Shown here one piece after another: positions 1 through 12,308 of a stretch of 64,000 bases of DNA; position 1 is the stretch's first letter; each line of letters opens with the position of its first letter. The stretch comes from Candidatus Omnitrophota bacterium. GTDB taxonomy: Bacteria > Omnitrophota > Gorgyraeia > Gygaellales > Profunditerraquicolaceae. Position numbers and translations under genes: made by a program. The notes under the pieces are model-generated. The model had not been told where the DNA came from. It did no database searches and worked only from the letters and a program-made list of their open reading frames with translations. The stretch spans positions 1 to 64,000 of the forward strand of contig JBEKSD010000005.1 in assembly GCA_049517335.1 (NCBI GenBank). The letters are read 5' to 3'.

Positions 1-538
1 TCTTAATGGCCATGGCCACGTCATGGGCAAGGGCAACAAAGAATTCCAGTTCATCTTTACCGAACTTCTTTTTGTTTATCTTCTCCCCCAGTAAAAGTAG
101 GCCTAAGAGGTCATCCCGAAAGTAGCTGGGGATACAGGCTGTCGAACCGAATATCTCCATCTGGTAGAGTACGCCTTTTAAGATCTGTTTTGTTTTTTGA
201 TTCAGGTTCTTTCTTTTTAATAAACTTTTGGCGTAATCATAAACAATTAGGCCTTCGCTGTGGATATTTTTATCGAGCCTGTTGCGGAAGAATTTTATTA
301 AAGGGTTATCCGCATCCATACGGGCAAACCCTTTGGGGATTTTTAAGCCTGTCTGGCCTCCGGAAACGGTAAGGATATAAGTATCTCTCTGGGAGTCATG
401 AAGAAGTATTCCTGAGTGGCTAACCTTCACCTTTTGCACGATCATGCGCACGATCATGCGGATAAGGACGTCCGGCTTATGGACTAAGATCATCGTCTTA
501 GAGGCGCCCTCAAGCTCTTTTTTATAGTTTATTGCCAC
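1..538 (-). CDS. GAF-domain signalling protein, probably HD-GYP type (runs off the window)
   Basis: Not in the ORF track because it is partial. GTG at 538 abuts the stop of the receiver gene; it reads MAINYKKELEGASKTMILVHKPDVL...KDELEFFVALAHDVAMAIK, a GAF-like end. The output domain is inferred. Confidence 0.6.
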   Translation of the reverse strand, partial: MAINYKKELEGASKTMILVHKPDVLIRMIVRMIVQKVKVSHSGILLHDSQRDTYILTVSGGQTGLKIPKGFARMDADNPLIKFFRNRLDKNIHSEGLIVYDYAKSLLKRKNLNQKTKQILKGVLYQMEIFGSTACIPSYFRDDLLGLLLLGEKINKKKFGKDELEFFVALAHDVAMAIK

Positions 539-922
539 TTACTTTTCTTTCTCTTGACTTATCTTTAACAGGCTCATAACGACCCTCTCCAGCTCTTCCA
601 GTTGAAGAGGTTTATGTATGTAGTCTAGTGCGCCCAGTTCGGTGCACTGGTCAAAGGCAGACCCCTCTTCGGGCTTGGTCCCGGTAACCATAATAACCTT
701 AACGCCGATATTTTTATTCCTGATTTGCCTTAAAACTTCAATTCCGCTAAGGCCTGCCATATTTATATCCAATAGGATGAGTTCTAATTTTTCTTTATCC
801 AGGATTTTGAGCGCCTCTTCTCCATTTTCAGCAGTAACAACGTCAATTTTGCGCTTGCGGAAGAAATTAGCGGCGAAATCCCTTACATCCTCCTCATCAT
901 CTACAATCAGTAATCTGTTCAT
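539..922 (-). CDS. Single-domain response regulator (receiver)
   Basis: LLIVDDE, LLDINM, MVTG and HKP receiver motifs. The ATG at 922 follows a GAGG-type RBS; the track extends the ORF to 982. Confidence 0.9.
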   Translation of the reverse strand: MNRLLIVDDEEDVRDFAANFFRKRKIDVVTAENGEEALKILDKEKLELILLDINMAGLSGIEVLRQIRNKNIGVKVIMVTGTKPEEGSAFDQCTELGALDYIHKPLQLEELERVVMSLLKISQEKEK

Positions 923-1062
923 ATTCTCACCTCTAAATATTAAAATTAATGATAGAAATATTACCCTTGGAGACACACCCATAAATTTTAATTATATATT
1001 AACGGGAAGGATTAGTAAAGGAATTTAAGGAATCTTAAGGAAAGAACAAAACCTAAAACAGA

Positions 1063-1088
1063 GGTTCAGAGCCCTTGGGCTCTGAACC
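1063..1088 (-). terminator. 12-bp perfect hairpin, probable intrinsic terminator at the island's left edge
   Basis: GGTTCAGAGCCC-TT-GGGCTCTGAACC, followed on the minus strand by T-rich TCTGTTTTAGGTTTTGTTCTTT. Confidence 0.55.
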
Positions 1089-1335
1089 GTCTAGAATCAA
1101 TTCGAACTGCTTCCAAGATCCAGGTTAAAATTATAATTCCACCACTTCAGCGAATCCCATTATAGCAAAGATTGTCAAAAAAGTAGGGGAATTATTTTTA
1201 CTAGGGATGTCATTTAGGGTGATAACGAAAAACTTAAAAGCTAGTAAGGAAATTATACTAAAACGCTTACCGCGATAATAAGTGATCCCTTGATAAAATT
1301 GTCGTTTTTGTCGCTTTTTGAGACTCAATTTTTAC

Positions 1336-1362
1336 ATAACTTATTTCATAGCAATAAGTTAT
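1336..1362. repeat. Perfect 10-bp inverted repeat with 7-bp spacer (dyad of the same type as in the island sites)
   Basis: ATAACTTATT-TCATAGC-AATAAGTTAT. Confidence 0.7.
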
Positions 1363-1374
1363 AGTAATTAAGAA

Positions 1375-2169
1375 CTAAGTGTACGACAGCATATCAGATG
1401 CTAAATATTTATATGGATGTTCCTCTCTATCCTTTTTATTATATGCTATATAGTCATTAATCATTTTTTCTGCTGTAGCCCTGTGTTTCTTGCTCCTTCT
1501 AATATTATGGGAAATCATAAAATTAGACATGATTGCTTGTTGGTTTGAGTTTAATTCCTTTATTTTCTTTACCAAGGGATCGTCTGCCATTTTATCTTCT
1601 TTTGCCACCTGCGCCTTATTTGTTGATCTCCAAAGATCTGAAGTCCCTGTTGCTTTATTTAGATAACCTAATCTTTCTAAAAGCATCATACTAGATAACT
1701 GGAGCTGGTGGCACATAAATAATATCTTTGCCTGCTCATAACTTGACAAATCTTCCGCATATGATAATTTTAATAATCTTTGCTGCCTGACTGCATAATC
1801 ATCTATAACTTCCCTTACGATTCTCCTTTGAAAATCTGGACCGAATTCAAGAGAATTTTCTAATCTCATTTGCTGGATATAACGCTGAACTGTACGTACA
1901 TCGACTTTTAAATGATCTGCTATCTCTTCACTAGAGTATCCTCTAGATTTAAAAAATAGCGCGCACTTCATTAAATCTTTCTTATCCACAGTAGCCGGAT
2001 CAACTATCTTTATCTCCAATTGCTTAGCCAGTTCAGCTAAAGATAAATTAGCATACGCGGTCTTTGGTGAAACTACTAAATCTTGCTTTTCTTTTACCTC
2101 TTTATTAGCTACGACTTCTGCCTTAAGTAGATCACCCTCTTTACTTATCTGCCCATTTTTAGTCTCCAT
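1375..2169 (-). CDS. Helix-turn-helix DNA-binding protein of mobile-element type
   Basis: GYSSEEIADHLKVDVRTVQRY is an HTH motif; AAGGAGG RBS upstream. Confidence 0.75.
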   Translation of the reverse strand: METKNGQISKEGDLLKAEVVANKEVKEKQDLVVSPKTAYANLSLAELAKQLEIKIVDPATVDKKDLMKCALFFKSRGYSSEEIADHLKVDVRTVQRYIQQMRLENSLEFGPDFQRRIVREVIDDYAVRQQRLLKLSYAEDLSSYEQAKILFMCHQLQLSSMMLLERLGYLNKATGTSDLWRSTNKAQVAKEDKMADDPLVKKIKELNSNQQAIMSNFMISHNIRRSKKHRATAEKMINDYIAYNKKDREEHPYKYLASDMLSYT

Positions 2170-2199
2170 CTCAAAGCCCTCCTTTTCAACTACGGTTAG

Positions 2200-2284
2200 T
2201 AAAATAAAACCGGCTACGACAAGAAAAAAGGCAGAGCATTCCTATCTCTGCCAATTCCGTTTTCTGTCGTAGCCGTTTATTTTA
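2200..2284 (-). promoter_or_regulatory. Structured 5' leader / putative transcription attenuator
   Basis: Long outer stem (TAAAATAAACGGCTACGACAGAAAA pairs with TTTTCTTGTCGTAGCCGGTTTTATTTTA) enclosing GGCAGAG-loop-CTCTGCC followed by a T-tract. Confidence 0.6.
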
Positions 2285-2314
2285 CCGGGCTAACTTTTTA
2301 TTCCTTCGAAATAA

Positions 2315-2342
2315 AATGTAACACAAAAATATCCGTTGTCAA
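2315..2342 (-). promoter_or_regulatory. Sigma70-type promoter for the HTH gene
   Basis: TTGACA-N16-TACATT with an extended TG. Confidence 0.5.
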
Positions 2343-2580
2343 GAGTAATGAAATAAAAACCTGAAAAATATATAAAAAAGTATAAAATTGTATAAAAAAT
2401 TTTACATTGGACAATTCCAGTTTATTTGATTTTGCCTTGAAAAGAAACAAAAAATCAATAACTTATTTCGCCATACTGGGGTGCACCCCAAGATGGAGTT
2501 TGATTGCCTACAAATTACTTTATAATACCCTTAATCCACCCTAAAGAATCAAGCCATAATTTCTTCCTTGGAGCAGAGAG

Positions 2581-2784
2581 TCATTTTTTCTTATTTCTAA
2601 AAAGATAAATCATTGTAATATCAACAATTAAAATAATACTATAGGTTATGAAGATGGGTGTTAAAAGATTAATTTGAAAACGAAGGATTTCTATAAATGT
2701 TTCTAAATTAAAACTTATTACAATTAAGCCTCCAGTAATATAAGCAAGTAAGCCTAAGATAATTATTAATTGTTTTTTATTCAT
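2581..2784 (-). CDS. Small two-helix membrane protein, hypothetical
   Basis: 67 aa, two hydrophobic segments, basic termini. Confidence 0.6.
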   Translation of the reverse strand: MNKKQLIIILGLLAYITGGLIVISFNLETFIEILRFQINLLTPIFITYSIILIVDITMIYLFRNKKK

Positions 2785-2796
2785 TTTCTTCCCTAT

Positions 2797-2890
2797 TTAG
2801 ATCTATCTATTCTAAACCAAGTAGCAATTACTTATTATGCAACAAAAGGTTAAGTCAGGTTTCGCTTAAGTTGAGCCTAAAATGTGCCCG
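2797..2890. repeat. Composite att-like site A
   Basis: Core TTAGA-N9-TCTAA (2797-2815), dyad TTACTTATT-N7-AAAAGGTTA (2828-2852), arms TGAGCCTAAAA/TGTGCCCG (2872-2890). Confidence 0.7.
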
Positions 2891-2891
2891 T

Positions 2892-3590
2892 TCATCTCTT
2901 TTCCAATAAGAATATTCCACCAAGTTTTGGAATAACATAATTATAAAAATGATATGGTAAAATTGTGTCTTCATTAATAAACACTGGCTTAATTCTTACT
3001 AAGATCCTGTTTATTGCAATAATAATCAAATACGCGGGGATTGTATAAAATAAAATTAAACTATGAAACAAATATTTAAAAACTACCCCAACAAATAATA
3101 ATAAAATAACGATATCAACTGTTAGTTTCCAATTAACAAATTTCTTATATCTGGCGGTTACGATAAGTAAAGCTTTCTTAAAGATAGTTCTCCACCCATA
3201 AGGCATGCCAACAAATTTCTTAGAAGAGGCGGTTACATTTCCCTGGTTTAAATTTAATTTCGTCATATGACACGGGAGTAGCCTTGAATTTATCCCAAAC
3301 AGAACTTCAACTTTTTCTTGCCTAACACCTGATAGGGTTGAATGTAAGATCTCTCCATTGCCAACATATAGTGATACGTGTGTTATGTTTATTGAAGTAA
3401 AATACATTATAACCCAAGCCAATAGGTTATTGTAGGTACAGAGAAATATCAAATCTCCGGGCTTTAACAAAGTTAAGGCCTCTTCTGAAATACACTCATG
3501 GAATCCACAGCCCATCGGGCTTTTCTTATTATCACCATATTTGCCTACACGCAGTATATAACTTATAGCGTCTATTGTGGCAAATAACAT
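2892..3590 (-). CDS. Permuted papain-like NlpC/P60 (YiiX/YebB-like) domain protein with a C-terminal TM hairpin
   Basis: LKPGDLIF, ITHVSLYVGNGEILHS and VGMPY motifs, then two hydrophobic helices. Confidence 0.7.
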   Translation of the reverse strand: MLFATIDAISYILRVGKYGDNKKSPMGCGFHECISEEALTLLKPGDLIFLCTYNNLLAWVIMYFTSINITHVSLYVGNGEILHSTLSGVRQEKVEVLFGINSRLLPCHMTKLNLNQGNVTASSKKFVGMPYGWRTIFKKALLIVTARYKKFVNWKLTVDIVILLLFVGVVFKYLFHSLILFYTIPAYLIIIAINRILVRIKPVFINEDTILPYHFYNYVIPKLGGIFLLEKR

Positions 3591-3647
3591 ATATTATAAA
3601 GGTCCATAATAAAACTATTCAACAAGAACACCTCCTTCTACTACCGC

Positions 3648-3740
3648 TTAGAACTACCTGTTCTAAATCATCCTTCTTTACTTTATAAAATACAGTAAGT
3701 TGCAGACATTACATAGAGATTTGTGCCCAAAAAGTGCCCA
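3648..3740. repeat. Composite att-like site B
   Basis: Core TTAGAAC-TACCT-GTTCTAA (3648-3666), dyad TTACTTTAT-N7-AGTAAGTTG (3678-3702), arms TGTGCCCAAAA/AGTGCCCA (3722-3740). Confidence 0.75.
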
Positions 3741-3755
3741 AAACGTTATAACTTA

Positions 3756-5054
3756 TTAAGCACTGTGTTCCCGATGCTCTAACCCCGGAGAAACTTTAAA
3801 TGATTTTTCTAAGAATTTATCAATAAATTTGTTCATTATAATAAGCTCACAATCTACCGACAAAACAGGATCATAGAAATATGATTCCTCCTCTTTTTTC
3901 TTCTTTATGTATATTGCCCTAGGAATAAGCTTTCTCATCTTTTTAATTCGCAATAGATCTATCTCTAACCTTTCAAAAGTATCAAGATGAGGCATAGAAT
4001 AATAGTAGGGCTTTTGTTTTCGTAATTCTTTTTTTAACTCTTCATCACTTTTTTTTGATTCATCAGTGTGCATCAATACTGTTGTAGGTATCATGATGGT
4101 ACGGTGTGCGGCTAGATGACGAATATCGGCCATTCTTTGTATCCAAGCATTGTTATCCTTTTTTAAAGACAATAATTCTTGTTCTTTGACTTTTTCCCAA
4201 AAAGCCTTCTTTGCGATCCCACATTCTTTTCCATTCACTCCTAATTTTTGGGATGCATTCAGAATAGTTGTCAACTGATCTAATAAACCCCATCCATACA
4301 AATAATAATTCGTAACATAATATCCAATAATAGTCCCAAATCTTCCCTCCTGACCAGCTCTGGTAAAAAGGTCGTTTTGAATTTGGTAAAACCTTATCAA
4401 GTCTCGCGTTAAAAGAATAAACGAATAACGGTTAAGGCTTAAACTTCTTAAGTTTTCTCTTAAATCACTATCTTCAATCTTGGCACTTTGCGAATTGAAA
4501 TAATCGGACAATTTCTTGCCGTTTGGATGATCAAATTGATAGTAAACTTCCGGCGTAAGAACTCTTATGTATGAAGTTGCACTCCAGTATATGGAAAAAC
4601 CTCTACCGCATACTTCAACAAAATCGTGGAATTCCTCTAAGGGAATTACACTAATAGTATCATAATGGTATACCAAATACCTGAGATCGATAAGCGCCTG
4701 ATTAGATGTAATAATGCAATCCGCTTTTAACTCAAGGCTTGAACTAAGTAGCATAGATGCTTGCTGATCGAGCCGTTCCAATTTCTCAAAATTTTCAGGT
4801 TTATCTTTCTTTATCCATTTTGACGGTACAAAGTTGCCCTGCTTTACAATATATGCTTCAACAATGCCCTCAAAAGAAGCAGAGATCCGACCTTCACTTG
4901 GTGTAAATAATTTTATGGTAACAGAATTGTCTAGGTCCCTAAGTTCGCGAATTGTGTCTATAACGGAAATTAAATAAGGGTTCGTCCAGAATTGATTCAG
5001 TAATTCAGGATCGATTATAACCTTGAAGTCTCTAGATGGTAAAAAGGGTACCAT
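3756..5054 (-). CDS. PIN-like plus HEPN domain protein (candidate defence RNase)
   Basis: N-terminal VIID...ADCIITSN PIN-like pattern; C-terminal helical region with an RHLAAH (RxxxxH) motif. Confidence 0.6.
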   Translation of the reverse strand: MVPFLPSRDFKVIIDPELLNQFWTNPYLISVIDTIRELRDLDNSVTIKLFTPSEGRISASFEGIVEAYIVKQGNFVPSKWIKKDKPENFEKLERLDQQASMLLSSSLELKADCIITSNQALIDLRYLVYHYDTISVIPLEEFHDFVEVCGRGFSIYWSATSYIRVLTPEVYYQFDHPNGKKLSDYFNSQSAKIEDSDLRENLRSLSLNRYSFILLTRDLIRFYQIQNDLFTRAGQEGRFGTIIGYYVTNYYLYGWGLLDQLTTILNASQKLGVNGKECGIAKKAFWEKVKEQELLSLKKDNNAWIQRMADIRHLAAHRTIMIPTTVLMHTDESKKSDEELKKELRKQKPYYYSMPHLDTFERLEIDLLRIKKMRKLIPRAIYIKKKKEEESYFYDPVLSVDCELIIMNKFIDKFLEKSFKVSPGLEHREHSA

Positions 5055-5173
5055 ATCTTTGAAATAAAAAAGGCAATTCTAAATGTCTTCCTTTTTCCCA
5101 AATAAAAGTTCCTCGTTTAGATTAGTCTGGACGTTCCAATAATTTCAGCTTATCAATCATTCCTAAATCAAGC

Positions 5174-5572
5174 TCAAGAAACATGCTTACATACTGGACA
5201 TTGATATTCGCCTACTCCAATGTTAAAAGGTAACTTTGTTAGAGTTATAAGTTTCTTATTAGAATCAAAGCAGCCTGTGCAAAATGGTCCCTCAGAATAG
5301 CCACTTAGAGGTTTAGAGATAAACCAATAGTTGCCTTTTTTGATTGTAAGCTGAGATCGAACATCATCCGAAGATTCGAGTCCCTTGATCTTCTTCTTCA
5401 AATCAAGATTTTCTTCCTGCAATGTTGCTACCTGCATTTTTAAATCTGCAAGAGCAAGATTCAGATCAGCTATAAGATTCTTTGTCTTTGCGTCCTTAAC
5501 CAATTCAGCAACATCACGAAGCGTTCTCCCAATCTGCACAAGATTATTTATGACATCTACTGCGCTAGACAT
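5174..5572 (-). CDS. Coiled-coil plus zinc-ribbon hypothetical protein
   Basis: Heptad region followed by GPFCTGC...QCPVC. Confidence 0.7.
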   Translation of the reverse strand: MSSAVDVINNLVQIGRTLRDVAELVKDAKTKNLIADLNLALADLKMQVATLQEENLDLKKKIKGLESSDDVRSQLTIKKGNYWFISKPLSGYSEGPFCTGCFDSNKKLITLTKLPFNIGVGEYQCPVCKHVS

Positions 5573-5614
5573 GTATATTCTCCTTTACCTTAGTATATCT
5601 GCAAAAAGAAAAAC

Positions 5615-6082
5615 TCATTTGCCGATCAATAGCCCCCAAACACCCAATGCAATACCAATAATGAAACAACTCAGGGAACCATATCCTAACCATAAATTAA
5701 GATAGGGGTCTTTCGAGCGATGTTCATCATCCTCATTAAGCTTCTCCCAAGAAATTATGTTAAGAAAATACTCATTAACACTTTTCCTCCAAGCTTCAAA
5801 TAAACCTGTCATTTGATGATAAACATGTGCAACCAATAAACCAACAAAAATAATCCCAAGTAACATAATACCCAAGCCCCAAACAACAAATGAACACACC
5901 TGATGCCTAGCTCCAATAAACCCTAGCATAGCGATAGCACCACCTGAATTGGTCACAAATAGTAAATTTATCGCTTTATCTGCCCACTCCTTCTGTAAAT
6001 GATAAAGCTGAGACCAACGCTGATTGGTATAATCAATATGCTGTCGCTGTATTTCTGGAGATAATTCTGAGTGTTTTTGCAT
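5615..6082 (-). CDS. Three-helix membrane protein, hypothetical
   Basis: LFVTNSGGAIAML and two further hydrophobic segments; GAGGAGG RBS. Confidence 0.7.
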   Translation of the reverse strand: MQKHSELSPEIQRQHIDYTNQRWSQLYHLQKEWADKAINLLFVTNSGGAIAMLGFIGARHQVCSFVVWGLGIMLLGIIFVGLLVAHVYHQMTGLFEAWRKSVNEYFLNIISWEKLNEDDEHRSKDPYLNLWLGYGSLSCFIIGIALGVWGLLIGK

Positions 6083-6135
6083 AGTTATAAAACCTCCTCA
6101 TGTAGGACTCGTAATTTTTACACACCATTACTAGT

Positions 6136-6230
6136 TAAGAGTACCTCGTTCTACATCAAATATTCTTTAATCATTGCAATCCTAACAGTTAAGATTTCTT
6201 ATACTCAGCTCTGTGCCTAAGATGTGCCCA
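6136..6230. repeat. Composite att-like site C
   Basis: Core TAAGA-N9-TCTAC (6136-6154), dyad TTAATCATT-N7-TAACAGTTA (6167-6191), arms TGTGCCTAAGA/TGTGCCCA (6212-6230). Confidence 0.7.
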
Positions 6231-6416
6231 TTAGTTCTTATGATTCTTATATTATTACTCATATTTTAGCACTTCTAATATTAAACTTAATACCTACTTA
6301 TCTAATAACAAATTCTAGGTACGGACATTCAAGGATCACAACTGAACCATAAACTTTGAACACGCATCAATAGATACCTGGTCTTTATTTCAGATAAGTT
6401 ATCTTATTTTGAGGAA

Positions 6417-6677
6417 TTATTTAATCTTTTTCTTCTCTTCAATTATTTCGCCTTCAACATCAATAACATTTGAATTAGTCTTTTTAAAAGAAGAGATTTT
6501 CCTGACTAAAATCAGCGAATTTATCAGGATCAGTAGAAGGATTATGCCTTCAATGGCAAGCCAGGTAAGCGGCTTAAAGAACATCCAGCCGAAAATGAGG
6601 TTGAATAAAAATAGTAGCGGTAAAAAACAGCCTGTTTGGCTCATAAAGAATATGGATTTCATTAAAATTTTTCCCAA
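6417..6677 (-). CDS. Small membrane protein, hypothetical
   Basis: Two TM segments and a VIDVEGE tail; coupled to the nitroreductase stop. Confidence 0.6.
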   Translation of the reverse strand: MGKILMKSIFFMSQTGCFLPLLFLFNLIFGWMFFKPLTWLAIEGIILLLILINSLILVRKISSFKKTNSNVIDVEGEIIEEKKKIK

Positions 6678-7162
6678 TGGAGCGATTCTTTCAGGCTGCG
6701 CTTTTCTGCCACATTTAACGCATTCTTATCCGTAGGATAACCTAGGGCTATCAGGCTGATAAGTTTATAGCCAATCGGAACACCTAATAGATAACTTACC
6801 TCCGGGCAATACGGTTTTTTGTCCCCGGCTACCCAACAGGAACCAATACCTAAAGAAGCAGCGCAAATAAGGATATTCTCTGTTGCAGCACACCCGTCTT
6901 CAAGGTAATATTTAGTATCGTTTGAGTAAACCGCAATACAACTTGCCGTATCAGCTATAAACCTGCCGTTTTCAGCAAGGGATGCGATTTTCTTTAAAGT
7001 TTCACGCTCTGTGATGACAAGAAACTCCCACGGCTGGACATTTCTTGCCGTAGCCGCATACCTGCCGGCATCAACCAAAGTTTCTAAAATATCCCTTGGT
7101 ATTGGCTTATTTTGAAATTGCCTGACGCTTCTACGTATTTTAATTGCTTCTAATGCATCCAT
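6662..7162 (-). CDS. Nitroreductase family protein
   Basis: RRSVRQF, NVQPWEF and LGIGSCWV motifs. Confidence 0.92.
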   Translation of the reverse strand: MDALEAIKIRRSVRQFQNKPIPRDILETLVDAGRYAATARNVQPWEFLVITERETLKKIASLAENGRFIADTASCIAVYSNDTKYYLEDGCAATENILICAASLGIGSCWVAGDKKPYCPEVSYLLGVPIGYKLISLIALGYPTDKNALNVAEKRSLKESLHWEKF

Positions 7163-7163
7163 T

Positions 7164-7550
7164 TTAAGTTTTAGGACAAATTAACCGCTTGATTTCTGCG
7201 GGAATGACTTTTGGCTTAAAATCAGTGCCTACGCAAACCAGGATTGTTTTTGCCTTTGAAACTAACTGGCCGTTTTGGTCCTTAATCTCGGCGTCAAATT
7301 CAAGGCGGACAGTGGAATTTGCGCTAATCCAAGTACTTATTTCCAACTCATCGCCGTAGCGGGCGGGAAGTTTATAATCAATCTCCTGCCGCGCTACCAC
7401 AAAAAATGTTCCTCTATCAGCCAATTTCTTAATAGACAGACCTTTTTCCGCAAATAACTCAGTCCTTGCCTCTTCTAAAAATTTCAGGTAATTAGAATAA
7501 TAAACCACCCCGCCGCAGTCGGTATCGTGATAATATATCTTCTTTCTCAT
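7164..7550 (-). CDS. ybgC: YbgC/FadM-family acyl-CoA thioesterase
   Basis: DTDCGGVVYYSNYLKFLEEAR hot-dog motif. Confidence 0.88.
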   Translation of the reverse strand: MRKKIYYHDTDCGGVVYYSNYLKFLEEARTELFAEKGLSIKKLADRGTFFVVARQEIDYKLPARYGDELEISTWISANSTVRLEFDAEIKDQNGQLVSKAKTILVCVGTDFKPKVIPAEIKRLICPKT

Positions 7551-7954
7551 TTCTTTAATTCAACCAACGCCTTATCATTATCGCTTGTTGATAAAACCAG
7601 TTGCGCCGGGCAACCTGCGATACAGGCGGTGCCATAAACCTGCTTGATATCAATTTTAGCTGCCGCGAGAATTGAGGTTACGGTTTTTAACGCTCCAGGC
7701 TTATTCTCCAACTCTACGATAACCACCTGATTTTCCTTTACTTCCTTATACCCGGCTTTATTAAGCGCATCCATAGTCCTTAAAGCATCATCAGTTATAA
7801 CCATGAGTTTTGCTTCGTTGTTCACTACGTGCCCTGCTACCCCTTCAATATTTATGCCTTTCTCAGTCAAGAGCTTGCTCACATTTGCCAAGACACCGAC
7901 TTTATTCCCCGTGCCTATTTGGATTTCCTTACCCAATTTCACCGCTTTAATCAT
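7547..7954 (-). CDS. Tandem ACT domain protein
   Basis: NKVGVLA and ENKPGAL ACT repeats. Confidence 0.85.
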   Translation of the reverse strand: MIKAVKLGKEIQIGTGNKVGVLANVSKLLTEKGINIEGVAGHVVNNEAKLMVITDDALRTMDALNKAGYKEVKENQVVIVELENKPGALKTVTSILAAAKIDIKQVYGTACIAGCPAQLVLSTSDNDKALVELKK

Positions 7955-8051
7955 CCCCCTCCTCCTTCCTTATTCTATCTACTTTTCATAAGCTAATAAT
8001 TTATATTAAATTAGCATATTTAAGAGGAGAAATCAATAAAATGATTTGTTA

Positions 8052-9359
8052 TTATTCCTTTACGAAGCTTGCCAAACCGGTTGCGGATTGGATACCTGCG
8101 GCAACTTCTGGGATAATGCCTTTTTTGGCATAAATAGGATGGATTTTCTTTCTTATCTCAGGGAGCTTTAAGGCAAATATAAACGCAGCGATAACACAAG
8201 CTGAACCTCCGAATAATAAAGTATTCGTCGCCCCTATTCTGCCGGCTAAAGTTCCTGCCAGTAGGCTGCCGAAGGGGCTCATCCCCATAAAAGACATGGT
8301 GTAGAAACTCATTACCCTTCCGCGCTTGTCTTCATCTACAATAGTCTGCAATACCGTATTGCTGGAAGCCATCTGAACCATCATCCCGAAACCGCACAAT
8401 AACAATAACAGCATTGAAAACCATAAGGCCCGCGATAAAGAAAAAGCAATGATACCTAAGCCAAAAAGGCCTGAAGCGTAAGCGATTAATTTAGCTAAGC
8501 CTACAACACTTTTCCTGGCCGCCAGATAAATTGCTCCGATTAAAGCTCCGATGCCGGACATCGCCACAAGGAAACCTAGCGTATACGACCCGCCGTGAAA
8601 AATATCTTTAGCAAAAACCGGCATTAAAATCTGGTAAGGTACTCCCATCAGGCTGACTAACGCCAAAAGCGCCAAAATCCAAATAATGGGATAAAAATTA
8701 AAAGCATAACTTACTCCTTCTTTTAATTCAAGGAAGATATGCCGTTTAAGCGGTTTTATCTTTTTCCTGGCTACCTTCATTAACAAAAGAGACCAAATAA
8801 CCGGAATATAACTGGCCGCGTTTAAGAAAAAACATAGCCCTTCCCCGACGGAAGCGATCAATATACCTGCGATTGCCGGGCCGATTAAGCGCGCCGCATT
8901 CACCATGGAAGAATTAAGCGCAATGGCATTGGCTAAATCTTCCCTGTCTTCCACCATCTCTACGGTAAATGCCTGGCGTATCGGTATGTCAAAAGAATTG
9001 ACTACTCCCAACAGACCGCTTAAAAGGATGATTTGCCAAACTTTAATATTTCCGGTTAAAATAAGAATGGCGAGTATAAAGGCTTGAATTAATGAAAGGG
9101 TCTGGGTAACAACCAACATATTCCTGCGGTTATGCCTGTCCGCAAAAACACCGGCAAAGGGAGAAAACAGAAAGGTCGGGATTTGTCCGATAAACCCCAC
9201 AATCCCTAATAGAAAAGGGGAATTTGTCAGGCGGTAAACCAACCAGCTCAAAGCTATCTGCTGCATCCAAGTCCCTATCAGCGATATACTCTGACCTGCG
9301 AAAAAGAGGCGGTAATTCCTGTGTTTTAGCGCCCGAAATACATGTTTTAGGTTATTCAT
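8052..9359 (-). CDS. MFS transporter (MFS_3 type)
   Basis: About 12 TM helices; GVFADRHNRR motif A. Confidence 0.9.
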   Translation of the reverse strand: MNNLKHVFRALKHRNYRLFFAGQSISLIGTWMQQIALSWLVYRLTNSPFLLGIVGFIGQIPTFLFSPFAGVFADRHNRRNMLVVTQTLSLIQAFILAILILTGNIKVWQIILLSGLLGVVNSFDIPIRQAFTVEMVEDREDLANAIALNSSMVNAARLIGPAIAGILIASVGEGLCFFLNAASYIPVIWSLLLMKVARKKIKPLKRHIFLELKEGVSYAFNFYPIIWILALLALVSLMGVPYQILMPVFAKDIFHGGSYTLGFLVAMSGIGALIGAIYLAARKSVVGLAKLIAYASGLFGLGIIAFSLSRALWFSMLLLLLCGFGMMVQMASSNTVLQTIVDEDKRGRVMSFYTMSFMGMSPFGSLLAGTLAGRIGATNTLLFGGSACVIAAFIFALKLPEIRKKIHPIYAKKGIIPEVAAGIQSATGLASFVKE

Positions 9360-11325
9360 ACCTTAAGGCTTCAATGGGGTCAAGGCTAGAAGCCTTCTTT
9401 GCAGGCCAGAGACCAAAGACTACACCTACGATTAACGAGAATGTTGTGGCAAGAGTTATCGGGGATAAAGAAATTATTACTGTCCACCCTGTAAATAAAG
9501 TAATTAATAAGGAAATACCTATTCCGAAAAGAATACCAATCACGCCTCCGATAAAAGACATCAGAACTGCTTCAATAAGGAACTGTGTCATAATGTCTTT
9601 ATTGCTTGCCCCTATTGCTTTTCTTAAACCGATCTCACGCGTGCGTTCGGTTACCGAAACAAGCATTATATTCATGATGCCGATTCCTCCCACTAAAAGA
9701 GAAATCGCAGCGATACAGCCTAATAAAAGCCCCATTGTCTTGGTGCTAGACTCCATAGCCGCTTTGATATCAGCCATATTTCGTATTTGAAATGCATCGT
9801 CAGCATCTTTAGGGGCTACATGATGTTCTTTTATAAGAACTTTGGTTATAGCGTCTTGTGCCGGATCTATTAAATCAGGAGCAGGTGCCTCAACGTAAAT
9901 TTGATCAATATATTGTTTACCCATAAGCCTGTACATTGCGGTAGTTATAGGCACAATAACTGTATCATCCTGATCACGGAATCCTGTTGCGCCTTTTTGG
10001 GGCAAAATGCCGATTACTTTACAATTAATCAGATTTATTTTTATGGTTTCGCCTAGTGGGTTAGCATCTCCAAAAAGCTCCCTTACCACGGTAGTACCTA
10101 ATAAGGCTACCTTATTTCTCATTTTTACTTCGTCCTCAGTAAAGAATCTCCCAACCGTAGGGACAGCGGATCGTAATGGTGCATAATCTACCCCAACGCC
10201 TTCAACCTGCGTATTCCAGTTCTTGTTTTCATATACAATTTGCGCACGTCCTGTTACTGAAGGACTAATATATTTTACCAAATCTGTAAGTTTAGAGATG
10301 GCCGTTAAATCCTGAAAAGTAAAACGGGTGGTTGAACCGGTTTGTAAAGCTATGCCTTGTACTTTTGGAGATCCGGGCCTGACCAGCAATAGATTAGAGC
10401 CTAACGAAGCCAGTTGTTGTTCAATTGACTTCTGCGCCCCGCTACCCAGAGCAACCATAGCAATAACCGCAGCTACGCCTATAAGTATGCCGAGGATTGA
10501 TAAAAAGGCACGCATTTTATGCGCTAGCATTGCAAAAATTGCCTGTCTTATATAATCCAGAAACTCTATCCCCCCTTTAATTGTCGTGCCAGATTTTGAT
10601 AAAATATTTTTTACTAAATTCTCAGGAGGAGCAATTTCGGATATTTTGGCTTCCGTAGAAACAGCCTTATCGGAAATAATTCTACCGTCACGCATTTGAA
10701 TAATACGCTTGGCGTGCGCAGCAACTTCATTTTCGTGAGTGACTACGACAACGGTCTTGCCTTTTCGGTTTAATTCCTTCAATATAGCGAGTATCTCTTC
10801 CTTACTCTTTGAATCAAGATTACCCGTGGGTTCATCGGCTAAAATTATCAGCGGCTCATTGACTAAAGACCGAGCTATGGCAACTCTCTGCTGCTGGCCT
10901 CCGGACATCTCATTCGGCTGATGCAGCATCCTATCTTTTAAGCCGACCTCTTCAATTTTCTCCTTTGCTTTTTCCTTCAGGTGGCGCTTTCCCGCATAAA
11001 TCAAAGGAAGCTCGGCATTTTCTAAGGCAGTCATCCTGGGCAATAAATGGAACTGCTGGAAGATAAAACCCACCAGCTGGTTTCTAACCAGAGCTAACTC
11101 CTGATCAGAAAGCTTGGTTATTTCTGCGCCCCCTAAAAAATATTCTCCTGAGTCCGGCCTGTCTAAGAGACCCAGTACATGCATTAACGTAGATTTTCCC
11201 GAACCGGAAGCACCCATGATTGCGACAAACTCGCCTGAAGAGATCTTTAGGGATACATCACGCAAGGCCTCTACCTTAACTTGTCCCATCTGATAAGTCT
11301 TATATAAATTTTTTACTTCAATCAT
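9352..11325 (-). CDS. macB: MacB-type ABC transporter, ATPase-permease fusion
   Basis: [16 protein letters not shown], and [18 protein letters not shown] (FtsX-type permease). Confidence 0.92.
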
Positions 11326-11345
11326 TGTTTCCCTTAAATTGAACC

Positions 11346-12308
11346 TTATTTTTTCTTTTGACTAAAAGGCATAAACGGATTCTTACCAACGTTGTCGGTT
11401 GGCAGAACATATTTTTTTGACTTAACAATTATCTTATCATTTTTATCGACACCGGAAAGAATTTCATAATTCTTATCGTCGGTAATACCCAGTTCGATTA
11501 TACGCTTAACCGGTTCTTTACTGCCTTCTTGTTTTACTAATACATAATCCTGGCCCTTATCTTTATGTACCGCTTCAACAGGTAAAAGAAGCGCATTCTC
11601 TCTACCTTCGGACTTGAAATCTACGGTTGCGTTCATTCCTGAACGGAAAAAGGGCGGCACATTTTCCGGCAATAAATCAACATTATAGATGGTGACATTA
11701 TTTACAGTCTGTGATTCATAATAAATATGCTCTACGCTGGCTTTTATTTTTGTACCCGGATAGGCATCTAAGGTAATCACAGCTCCCTGTCCAAGCTTAA
11801 TTTTACCGATATCAGTCTCATCAACCTGTGCTCTGACTATCAGATGGTCTGAAAGTACGATTACAGCATCGGTAGTTGTAACGGTCTGGCCCGGTTGAGT
11901 TGTAGCTACTATAACCTCCCCATCTATAGGCGAAAGCAAAGCTATGGGTTTATATACTTCCTTCCAATAGTTTAATACTTTCTCACCCTGGCCTTCAGCG
12001 GCGTCAAGAAGAGCGGCACGTTCAGTAGAACTCATCCAGGCTAAAGGCTGCCCCACTTTTACCTTTTCTCCTTCCTGGACTAAAATACTTTCAATACGCC
12101 CACCAACCGATGGCTTAACTTCCAACCGGTTTTTTGGCAGGACCGTACCGGTAGTAGAAATGAAAGTCTCTATTGTACCCGTGGTAGGGGTAATTTCTTT
12201 CGTTATCTCCTTGTTAGAACCTTTACTTTTTATTTTCATGATAACGAACGCGGAAGTAATTAATATCGCGAGAATTACAAAAATATATTTTAGTTTTTTA
12301 TTGCGCAT
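11346..12308 (-). CDS. macA: MacA-type periplasmic adaptor (membrane fusion protein)
   Basis: N-terminal TM, SPIDGEV, VDETDIG; lies between the TolC and MacB genes. Confidence 0.85.
   Translation of the reverse strand: MRNKKLKYIFVILAILITSAFVIMKIKSKGSNKEITKEITPTTGTIETFISTTGTVLPKNRLEVKPSVGGRIESILVQEGEKVKVGQPLAWMSSTERAALLDAAEGQGEKVLNYWKEVYKPIALLSPIDGEVIVATTQPGQTVTTTDAVIVLSDHLIVRAQVDETDIGKIKLGQGAVITLDAYPGTKIKASVEHIYYESQTVNNVTIYNVDLLPENVPPFFRSGMNATVDFKSEGRENALLLPVEAVHKDKGQDYVLVKQEGSKEPVKRIIELGITDDKNYEILSGVDKNDKIIVKSKKYVLPTDNVGKNPFMPFSQKKK

Follow-up and report, generated by a model that had tools for sequence, protein, structure and literature searches.

The first 12 kb of a 64,000-nucleotide stretch of a Candidatus Omnitrophota genome (contig JBEKSD010000005.1, positions 1 to 64,000, G000:C5:1-64000 in our collection, hereafter the window) have every credible open reading frame (ORF) on the minus strand and include an island of low GC content, extending approximately from position 1000 to 6650 (26-37% GC vs. 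~42% in the flanks). Three composite sites, A (2797-2890), B (3648-3740) and C (6136-6230), punctuate this island, and the original prediction had taken them for attachment (att)-like sites that delimit gene cassettes. Along the minus strand, site C precedes genes for proteins of 155, 132 and 432 residues, site B precedes a gene for a 232-residue protein, and site A precedes a gene for a 67-residue protein, after which come the stump of a zf-HC2 gene and a gene for a 264-residue helix-turn-helix (HTH) protein. The array is an orphan fragment of a family of islands that integrate at tRNA genes, and its sites are most likely shared control and shuffling joints rather than working attachment sites.

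On the minus strand, each site consists of an 18-mer, made up of two GGGCACA-type heptamers with an 11-bp period, an AT-rich leader of 55-57 nt, and a 19-bp inverted repeat (IR), the palindrome TTAGAAC-N5-GTTCTAA, after which come the ribosome-binding site (RBS) and start codon of the next gene. In site C (6136-6230), the 18-mer GGGCACATCTTAGGCACA occupies positions 6229-6212, the leader 6211-6155 (57 nt) and a degenerate palindrome, GTAGAACGAGGTACTCTTA, 6154-6136. The corresponding parts of site B (3648-3740) are GGGCACTTTTTGGGCACA at 3739-3722, a 55-nt leader at 3721-3667 and TTAGAACAGGTAGTTCTAA at 3666-3648, and those of site A (2797-2890) are GGGCACATTTTAGGCTCA at 2889-2872, a 56-nt leader at 2871-2816 and TTAGAATAGATAGATCTAA at 2815-2797. 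Neighboring sites are spaced by 850 and 2490 bp. The previous stop codon lies 2 nt from site A and ~16 nt from site B, and the next start codon lies 12 nt from site A, 53 nt from site C, and 57 nt from site B if the listed ATG is used, a TTG being nearer. The ends of a site are not mutually complementary, and folding yields just a local hairpin of 5-7 bp. Coordinates, common orientation, the TTAGA-N9-TCTAA repeat (degenerate in site C) and the 11-bp-period repeats were thus all as first described. The third predicted part, a 25-bp dyad between the two, held up only in part: the stretch contains positionally conserved blocks, and no dyad is kept across the 33 sites collected from relatives and metagenomes (see below). 

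The genes of the island, all on the minus strand, give few hints as to function. The 155-residue protein (5615-6082) has no family match, and the 5' untranslated region of its gene is homologous to the stretch that follows a site reduced to the palindrome in the metagenome contig L209. The 132-residue protein (5174-5572) is coiled-coil-like and matches phrog_1244, a family of unknown function. The 432-residue protein (3756-5054) shows weak matches to HEPN_Cthe2314 and PIN_4, both below cut-offs, and has no PADLOC match. The 232-residue protein (2892-3590), whose true start may lie upstream at a TTG near 3619, combines a permuted papain/NlpC-P60-like N-terminus (YaeF-like, again below cut-offs) with a hydrophobic C-terminus. 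The gene for the 67-residue membrane protein (2581-2784) has homologues after a composite site in L209 and after another small gene in the relative G073, and the 11 codons that remain of the zf-HC2 (anti-sigma-like) gene (2549-2584) correspond to a gene that is intact after the 67-residue homologue in L209. In that contig (3852-4010, oriented), the zf-HC2 ORF overlaps the stop codon of the membrane-protein gene, and three small genes open with the same MNKKQLI... segment. The 264-residue HTH protein (P0001; 1375-2169) is encoded at the downstream end of the island. It does not strictly co-occur with the sites and was rejected as their obligatory partner, its homologues being found in 27 of 234 genomes of the order and in neither of the site-bearing genomes G013 and G195. 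An inverted repeat with 10-bp arms, ATAACTTATT-N7-AATAAGTTAT, is found directly 3' of its stop codon (1335-1365), and related ATAACTTAT words recur near positions 2460, 3750 and 6400 of the window. The idea that the cargo is defense-like is weak for the window, as PADLOC returned no match for the five cargo genes, its one weak match (E = 4.7e-4) falling on the HTH protein, and as the HEPN, PIN and NlpC/P60 matches to Pfam remained below cut-offs. A phage origin was also considered and rejected, with no match of the composite pattern in viral_contigs and PHROG matches limited to phrog_1244 and a weak phrog_1128. No tRNA gene and no integrase gene was found within the window, no att-arm unit was found in the island, and an Rfam search gave no match at E <= 1 in positions 1-12000 or in seven related loci.

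The 18-mer is the part of the site whose identity can be established from other elements. The exact sequence GGGCACATTTTGGGCACA occurs in at least 120 stretches of a species-representative genome collection, against ~17 expected by chance (our own estimate, assuming equal base use). The matches listed span Actinomycetota, Desulfobacterota-type metagenome-assembled genomes, Planctomycetota, Acidobacteriota, Pseudomonadota and others. Among 120 listed loci, a tRNA gene lies no more than 400 nt away in 29 and an integrase-like ORF no more than 1.5 kb away in 38, and 52 have at least one of the two, integrase-like ORFs being called with a hidden Markov model built from the neighbors. In many actinobacterial loci the 18-mer lies within the last codons of the integrase gene, where it reads CAQNVP or VPKMCP; since these represent two reading frames, the constraint acts on the DNA. 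Several actinobacterial loci have a third heptamer 10 bp further on (GGGCACATTTTGGGCACACTTGGGCACA). Four of five whole genomes examined have two copies of the 18-mer that face the same way and are separated by 9.8-81 kb. In particular, a 13.7-kb element of Mycobacteroides chelonae (G235) lies between 24-bp direct repeats of a tRNA-Glu 3' end, with the 18-mer 50 nt inside one end, beside the 3' end of the integrase gene, and 93 nt inside the other. The proposal that the TGTGCCC direct repeats are att-arm repeats has therefore proved right: they are a genuine att-arm motif of tyrosine-integrase elements, located inside both ends, and flanking direct repeats were verified in two elements. A full-text literature search for the motif found no relevant description. 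The AcaCD box was rejected as a candidate, the one microbiological paper that contains TGTGCCCAAAA (PMC4207636) describing an inverted, unrelated motif. In a Limnobacter genome (G236, behind locus L071), two identical structures 60.7 kb apart in direct orientation (C3:1059336-1059623 and C3:1120001-1120288) each contain two triple-heptamer clusters ~260 nt apart beside a tRNA-Met end, as might be expected of one element that carries both arm clusters at each of its ends or of two elements in tandem.

Intact islands in relatives show where the composite sites belong. One of them, in G091 (contig C3), spans 10.9 kb, and its two ends carry the 3' end of tRNA-Phe as a 14-bp direct repeat. Its order is tRNA-Phe, 77 nt that include a TTGACA-17-TACTAT match, the 18-mer, a gene for a 341-residue tyrosine integrase, the cargo, a second 18-mer, 135 nt, and the 14-bp repeat, which places one arm 18-mer 77 nt inward of attL and the other 135 nt inward of attR. 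Within the island, four composite sites face the same way as all the genes and opposite to the arm 18-mers. They precede, respectively, a MauJ-like gene, a peptidase/HEPN_AbiU2 gene, a block of eight genes with SpoVG-like and small-terminase-like ORFs, and an HTH_17 excisionase-like gene, xis, of the gene group xis-PDT. Similarly, the metagenome contig L218 has tRNA-Ser, the 18-mer, an integrase gene (product P0002) and the array. In both L218 and G091 the 18-mer follows a TTGACA-17-TATAAT/TACTAT match and precedes the integrase start codon, 70-77 nt from the tRNA. P0002 is 96% identical to the integrase of G151, and with the integrases of G091 and G063 it shares 69-72% identity. In G073 an array is found beside tRNA-Phe together with a restriction-modification system, with no integrase nearby.

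The far att arm of these islands is a conserved unit of ~250 nt (E250), in which the 18-mer is accompanied by additional short repeats in a phased run and by a copied tRNA 3' end. Crossover segments of the islands are the 3' ends of tRNA-Phe, tRNA-Ser or tRNA-Glu, and they bear no likeness to the palindrome. Of the lambda-type att layout read into the sites, the arm repeats are thus genuine, whereas the palindrome is unlike the island cores and the true att sites of the family are built differently. One contig (L152, G060:C13) carries three E250 units in the same orientation within 5 kb (2539-2793, 6295-6550 and 7277-~7530), with a core like a tRNA-Ser end and, in two of them, 18-mers on both sides ~240 nt apart. 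These units separate ordinary-looking genes, for a methyltransferase, a glycosyltransferase, a CNNM/CBS protein and a 161-residue ORF, and they look like tandem integrase-less mini-elements or attP-like scars.

The expectation that a tyrosine integrase would be found next to the arm pairs was borne out in G091 and L218/G151, in which composite arrays adjoin a tRNA-adjacent integrase gene. No integrase of that type was found in the genome to which the window belongs (G000; 1.45 Mb in 31 contigs, 92% complete). Its recombinases are two Xer-like proteins and one 361-residue integrase that is adjacent to tRNA-Leu and has a different repeat, ATGCCAAA; the best match to P0002 has an E-value of 1.7e-27. 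The tRNA-Phe site of this genome is unoccupied, and no recombination joints were seen in the contigs of four DNA runs, all from the same strain. It is because the island has no integrase, tRNA or att arm, and the genome no close homologue of P0002, that the array is regarded as an orphan fragment. Two further good 18-mers of the genome lie outside the window. One (C12:529-546; L005/L147) ends an E250 unit in which the 3' end of tRNA-Phe is present in degenerate form; the DUF3800-like gene that comes next is cut off by the contig end, and the whole looks like the far end of another island, unassembled or decayed. The other (C1:52115-52132; L006/L148) is a short fragment located between genes. 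The gene for the 361-residue integrase (C3, L018, 1408-2493), the sole phage-type integrase of the genome, has an architecture like that of the 18-mer elements with another repeat. Its 3' end contains the tandem repeats ATGCCAAAAGTT, ATGCCAAAGAAA and GGCAAAAATGG, which code for ...MPKVMPKKGKNG and lie 20 nt from the convergent tRNA-Leu, and a gene for a 191-residue serine recombinase is located upstream.

The composite pattern recurs beyond the window, as the original prediction had asked of a genuine family of sites. In the 64-kb window the pattern GGGCAC-N6-GGC has exactly three matches, namely the three sites, all on the minus strand. Throughout the 1.45-Mb genome, the double GGGCACA heptamer with an 11-bp period and at most two mismatches in total occurs nine times, vs. 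once for a reversed control. The full composite pattern was found at seven places in four of the 234 genomes of the order (three in the genome of the window, two in G013, one each in G073 and G195), with none for the control, and a looser reading of the pattern adds sites in G073, G091, G190, G177 and G185. A metagenome scan returned 30 stretches, of which 16 were read as genuine, L215 and L218 being one sequence. The other 14, most of which fall in GC-rich coding DNA, were judged to be unrelated or to match by chance. In total, 33 distinct sites from 23 sources were collected among relatives and metagenomes. They were gathered with a regular expression for the feature itself, so that their uniformity is partly by construction; with this proviso, the leader measures 54-57 nt in all of them and 56 nt in 17, and the TTAGA and TCTAA arms of the palindrome are kept. 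Conserved blocks of the leader are TAAC(T) at +20 to +24, TTGTA near +28, AATAAnTAAA near +38 and A.TTGGT before the palindrome. The centers of the palindrome fall into recurring classes (GAGGT in 13 sites, AGATA in 11, AGTAT in five, and four singletons).

One explanation of this uniformity would be that the sites are inert relics, i.e., decayed copies of att arms left by repeated integration and deletion, functionless now and alike through recent common descent. The missing integrase, tRNA and att arm of the island in the window, the degenerate palindrome of site C, the neighboring gene cut down to 11 codons, and the three att-like units that are found within 5 kb in the relative G060 all fit this account. 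It is nevertheless improbable, since the leaders have diverged to ~50-65% identity and yet 33 sites from several genera retain the 18-mer and the palindrome arms, at a spacing of 54-57 nt and ahead of the RBS, and since real att remnants, the E250 units, differ from the sites and retain a copy of the tRNA end.

Comparisons between related sites reveal a mosaic structure. Three pairs of sites (B with site 3 of G073, C with L227, and L233 with L234) have an 88-89% identical 18-mer and leader between DNA that is unrelated on both sides. Site B and site 3 of G073 are 81% identical over 129 nt (window 3747-3624, corresponding to 14649-14777 of L161) and 88% identical over the 18-mer and leader, and the leader of site C is 89% identical to that of L227. 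Three other pairs share the palindrome and the downstream gene, not the leader: site A with L209-3544, L216 with L218+4210, and site C with the palindrome-only site of L209. In the first of these, the palindrome and the downstream 67-residue gene are 87% identical and the leaders are unrelated. The predicted module boundaries at the core gain support, as homology switches in or at the palindrome in all six informative pairs. At one locus of the genus g24, between a small conserved gene and rpmB, the genomes G192, G202 and G023 are empty, and G195, G190, G177 and G194 have orthologous leaders whose cargo differs from the palindrome on. Five g24 species retain orthologous leader units at this locus, and at least one of them, G195, has just Xer-like recombinases. 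Upstream of the g24 composite site of G195 (C1, L162, ~10090-10210) are two GC-rich dispersed repeats of ~45-70 nt, copies of which are found elsewhere in the same genome and in many congeners. The cargo of G178 is bordered at either side by a 28-nt AT-rich sequence that resembles a hairpin.

Such joints bring to mind an integron-analogous system, in which each composite site would be a one-armed att site, with a bent leader between the arm-type 18-mer and a core-type palindrome, and a P0002-type integrase, encoded beside a tRNA in intact islands and acting in trans in other cases, would cross over in the palindrome to insert, excise and reshuffle cargo. The 18-mer is indeed the arm motif of verified att sites, its fixed distance of 54-57 nt from the palindrome is near the 50-77 nt found between arm and core in real att sites when the side with the shorter distance is taken, and arrays are found directly downstream of the integrase gene in G091 and L218/G151. 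In addition to the switch of homology in all six pairs, the two members of each of the three downstream-homologous pairs have the same class of palindrome center, and orthologous leaders with cargo differing from the palindrome on are what is seen at g24. Arrays without an integrase would have a parallel in the integrase-less attC clusters of integrons. This explanation, the main rival of the one that we favor, is nonetheless less likely on several counts. The palindrome is unlike the crossover cores, which shift from tRNA-Phe to tRNA-Ser between close integrases while it remains constant, and the att units of the family proper (E250) are built otherwise. Leader units are unlinked to the upstream cargo in three of three pairs, although a cassette made of cargo plus att site predicts linkage. 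One site precedes xis, a gene of the island backbone; between G151 and L218, cargo differs directly after the stop codon of the integrase gene, at which there is no site; and at g24 the center class stays with the leader rather than the cargo. Furthermore, the genome of the window has no close homologue of P0002, and P0002 itself scores 89 bits against the integron-integrase model, whose cut-off is 265. Cross-genus joints at the palindrome do not prove site-specific exchange. A bolder version, unlikely in our view, is that the arrays represent a second integron-like route, whereby a tRNA-adjacent arm-binding integrase would capture and reshuffle promoter-bearing mini-cassettes at a dedicated palindrome separate from the chromosomal att core, with the cross-phylum 18-bp arm motif as the delivery site and orphan arrays awaiting the integrase of an incoming island.

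A role as promoter or operator, which the original prediction had named as a refuting case, is in our view somewhat more likely than a role as att site, because the sites always precede co-oriented genes, even the xis gene of the island itself. A same-strand ORF starts within 120 nt of the palindrome at 23 of the 31 sites with at least 120 nt of downstream sequence, and a same-strand ORF stops within 150 nt upstream at 28 of 33. At three sites, in which the start codon abuts the palindrome, the loop of the latter (GAGGTG, AAGGTG or AAGGA) is the sole Shine-Dalgarno-like sequence. The leader blocks may resemble the -35 and -10 elements of promoters for extracytoplasmic function (ECF) sigma factors. 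A covariation-kept structure of the palindrome was also considered and rejected, pairs 6-14 and 7-13 being broken, uncompensated, in 10 and 6 of the 33 sites.

The heptamer pair could also be conceived as a sigma-54 promoter for each cargo unit, with GG at -24 and GC at -12. The sigma-54 consensus is TGGCAC-N5-TTGCA, and GGGCAC-N5-xGGCA puts GGCAC and GCA at its spacing. However, Sigma54_DBD was not found in the genome of the window (92% complete) or in the site-bearing genome G013, 10 of the 31 genomes scored having a match, and the sole match to Sigma54_activat in the former is weak and lies inside an 816-residue frame. Moreover, the two halves of the motif are identical direct repeats, and the same motif occurs at att arms and within the coding ends of integrase genes. 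A sigma-54 promoter is thus very improbable and was rejected, no such sigma factor having been found in either genome.

The interpretation that we favor, with a probability of about 0.42, is that the sites are island-internal modules of arm site, leader and palindrome, which would tie each transcription unit to a protein that reads the att arms and would double as joints for the exchange of cargo. The sites in the window would be copies of a modular unit from small tRNA-integrating islands of this uncultured lineage. Intact islands have a tyrosine integrase gene beside a tRNA, the same 18-mer in both att arms, and a composite unit before every transcription unit, inverted relative to the arms and co-oriented with the genes. 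The 18-mer would be read by an arm-binding protein, either the N-terminal domain of the integrase or an excisionase-type winged HTH protein acting on direct repeats one helical turn apart, and this protein might make each unit's expression depend on the state in which the element is. The leader might carry a weak, factor-dependent promoter. The palindrome, directly ahead of the RBS, would fall on or close to the mRNA 5' end and could act as an operator or as a 5' stem. As the 18-mer and the palindrome are the sole conserved patches, they may in addition be the joints where islands exchange cargo. In the genome of the window, at most the expression function would still work, because the integrase, the tRNA and the att arm are missing. 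The probability left over by this and the rival explanations goes to further readings, including a purely RNA-level role of the palindrome.

Several observations weigh against the proposal of a control module. The match of the leaders to the sigma-70 consensus is no better than that of shuffled leaders (mean 8.29 vs. 8.29 +/- 0.12), so that a consensus sigma-70 promoter was rejected, and a promoter scan of the three sites found none. The palindrome was likewise rejected as the operator of a host regulon: in the genome of the window it occurs with no mismatch at site B alone and with at most two mismatches 35 times, vs. 33 times for a control palindrome. The window encodes no candidate binder besides P0001, which G013 and G195 lack. 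Outside this lineage, the 18-mer was seen at att arms only. Finally, the switch of homology at the palindrome in six of six pairs and the recurring classes of its center are what a crossover site would show.

Among the closest known systems are the lambda-type att sites of tyrosine integrases. Like the composite sites, they combine tandem direct-repeat arms with a short inverted repeat, some tens of bp away across AT-rich DNA, and the identical 18-mer is found in both arms of verified tRNA-integrated elements. They differ in that the palindrome is not the crossover core and that there is one arm only; the composite sites are internal to the element, inverted and always just before a gene start, and the genome of the window is without a cognate integrase. 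Integrons resemble the arrays in that co-oriented genes, mostly of unknown function, are split by ~95-bp repeats, that a tyrosine recombinase is adjacent in relatives, and that cargo switches at the repeat. The attC consensus is RYYYAAC ... GTTRRRY. Unlike attC sites, the composite sites have neither a long imperfect palindrome nor a GTTRRRY core, and they are unlinked to the upstream gene. P0002 is not IntI and is encoded beside a tRNA within a classical integrated island; against the XerA model it scores 153.7 bits, with a cut-off of 220. Co-oriented arrays follow the integrase gene in G091 and L218, and the window has no integrase platform. If the sites were recombination sites, they would represent a cassette-capture system independent of integrons. 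Whether the sites recombine or regulate, att arms of organisms as far apart as Actinomycetota and this lineage contain the 18-mer without a single letter changed.

Two other systems are relevant to a role in control. In modules of the KplE1 type, attL overlaps the promoter of the integrase gene, which is read away from the tRNA, and the integrase and the recombination directionality factor (RDF) repress it (PMC2951348). The order in G091 and L218, with the tRNA, 70-77 nt containing a promoter-like match, the 18-mer and the integrase gene, similarly puts the motif in a regulatory position. The difference is that the KplE1 arrangement concerns the integrase promoter only, whereas here the motif stands before every cargo operon, and that the window has no such module. 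RDFs bind direct repeats spaced by one turn of the helix, and Apl recognizes promoters as well as att sites (PMC7498355). Like the targets of the dual-purpose RDFs Apl of phage 186 and Cox of P2, repeats with an 11-bp period are found here both at att sites and before genes, and the HTH_17 gene behind a composite site of G091 is a candidate for a protein of this kind. On the other hand, each of the two att arms has the 18-mer, as is more usual for sites bound by an integrase at its arms, and no such small gene is found in the window. If the sites are regulatory, such an island would wire all of its cargo operons to a protein that reads the att arms, thereby extending the idea behind KplE1 and Apl/Cox from one promoter to a whole island, and the composite site would be a sequence tag by which islands of this kind, and orphan fragments of them, could be recognized in uncultured bacteria.

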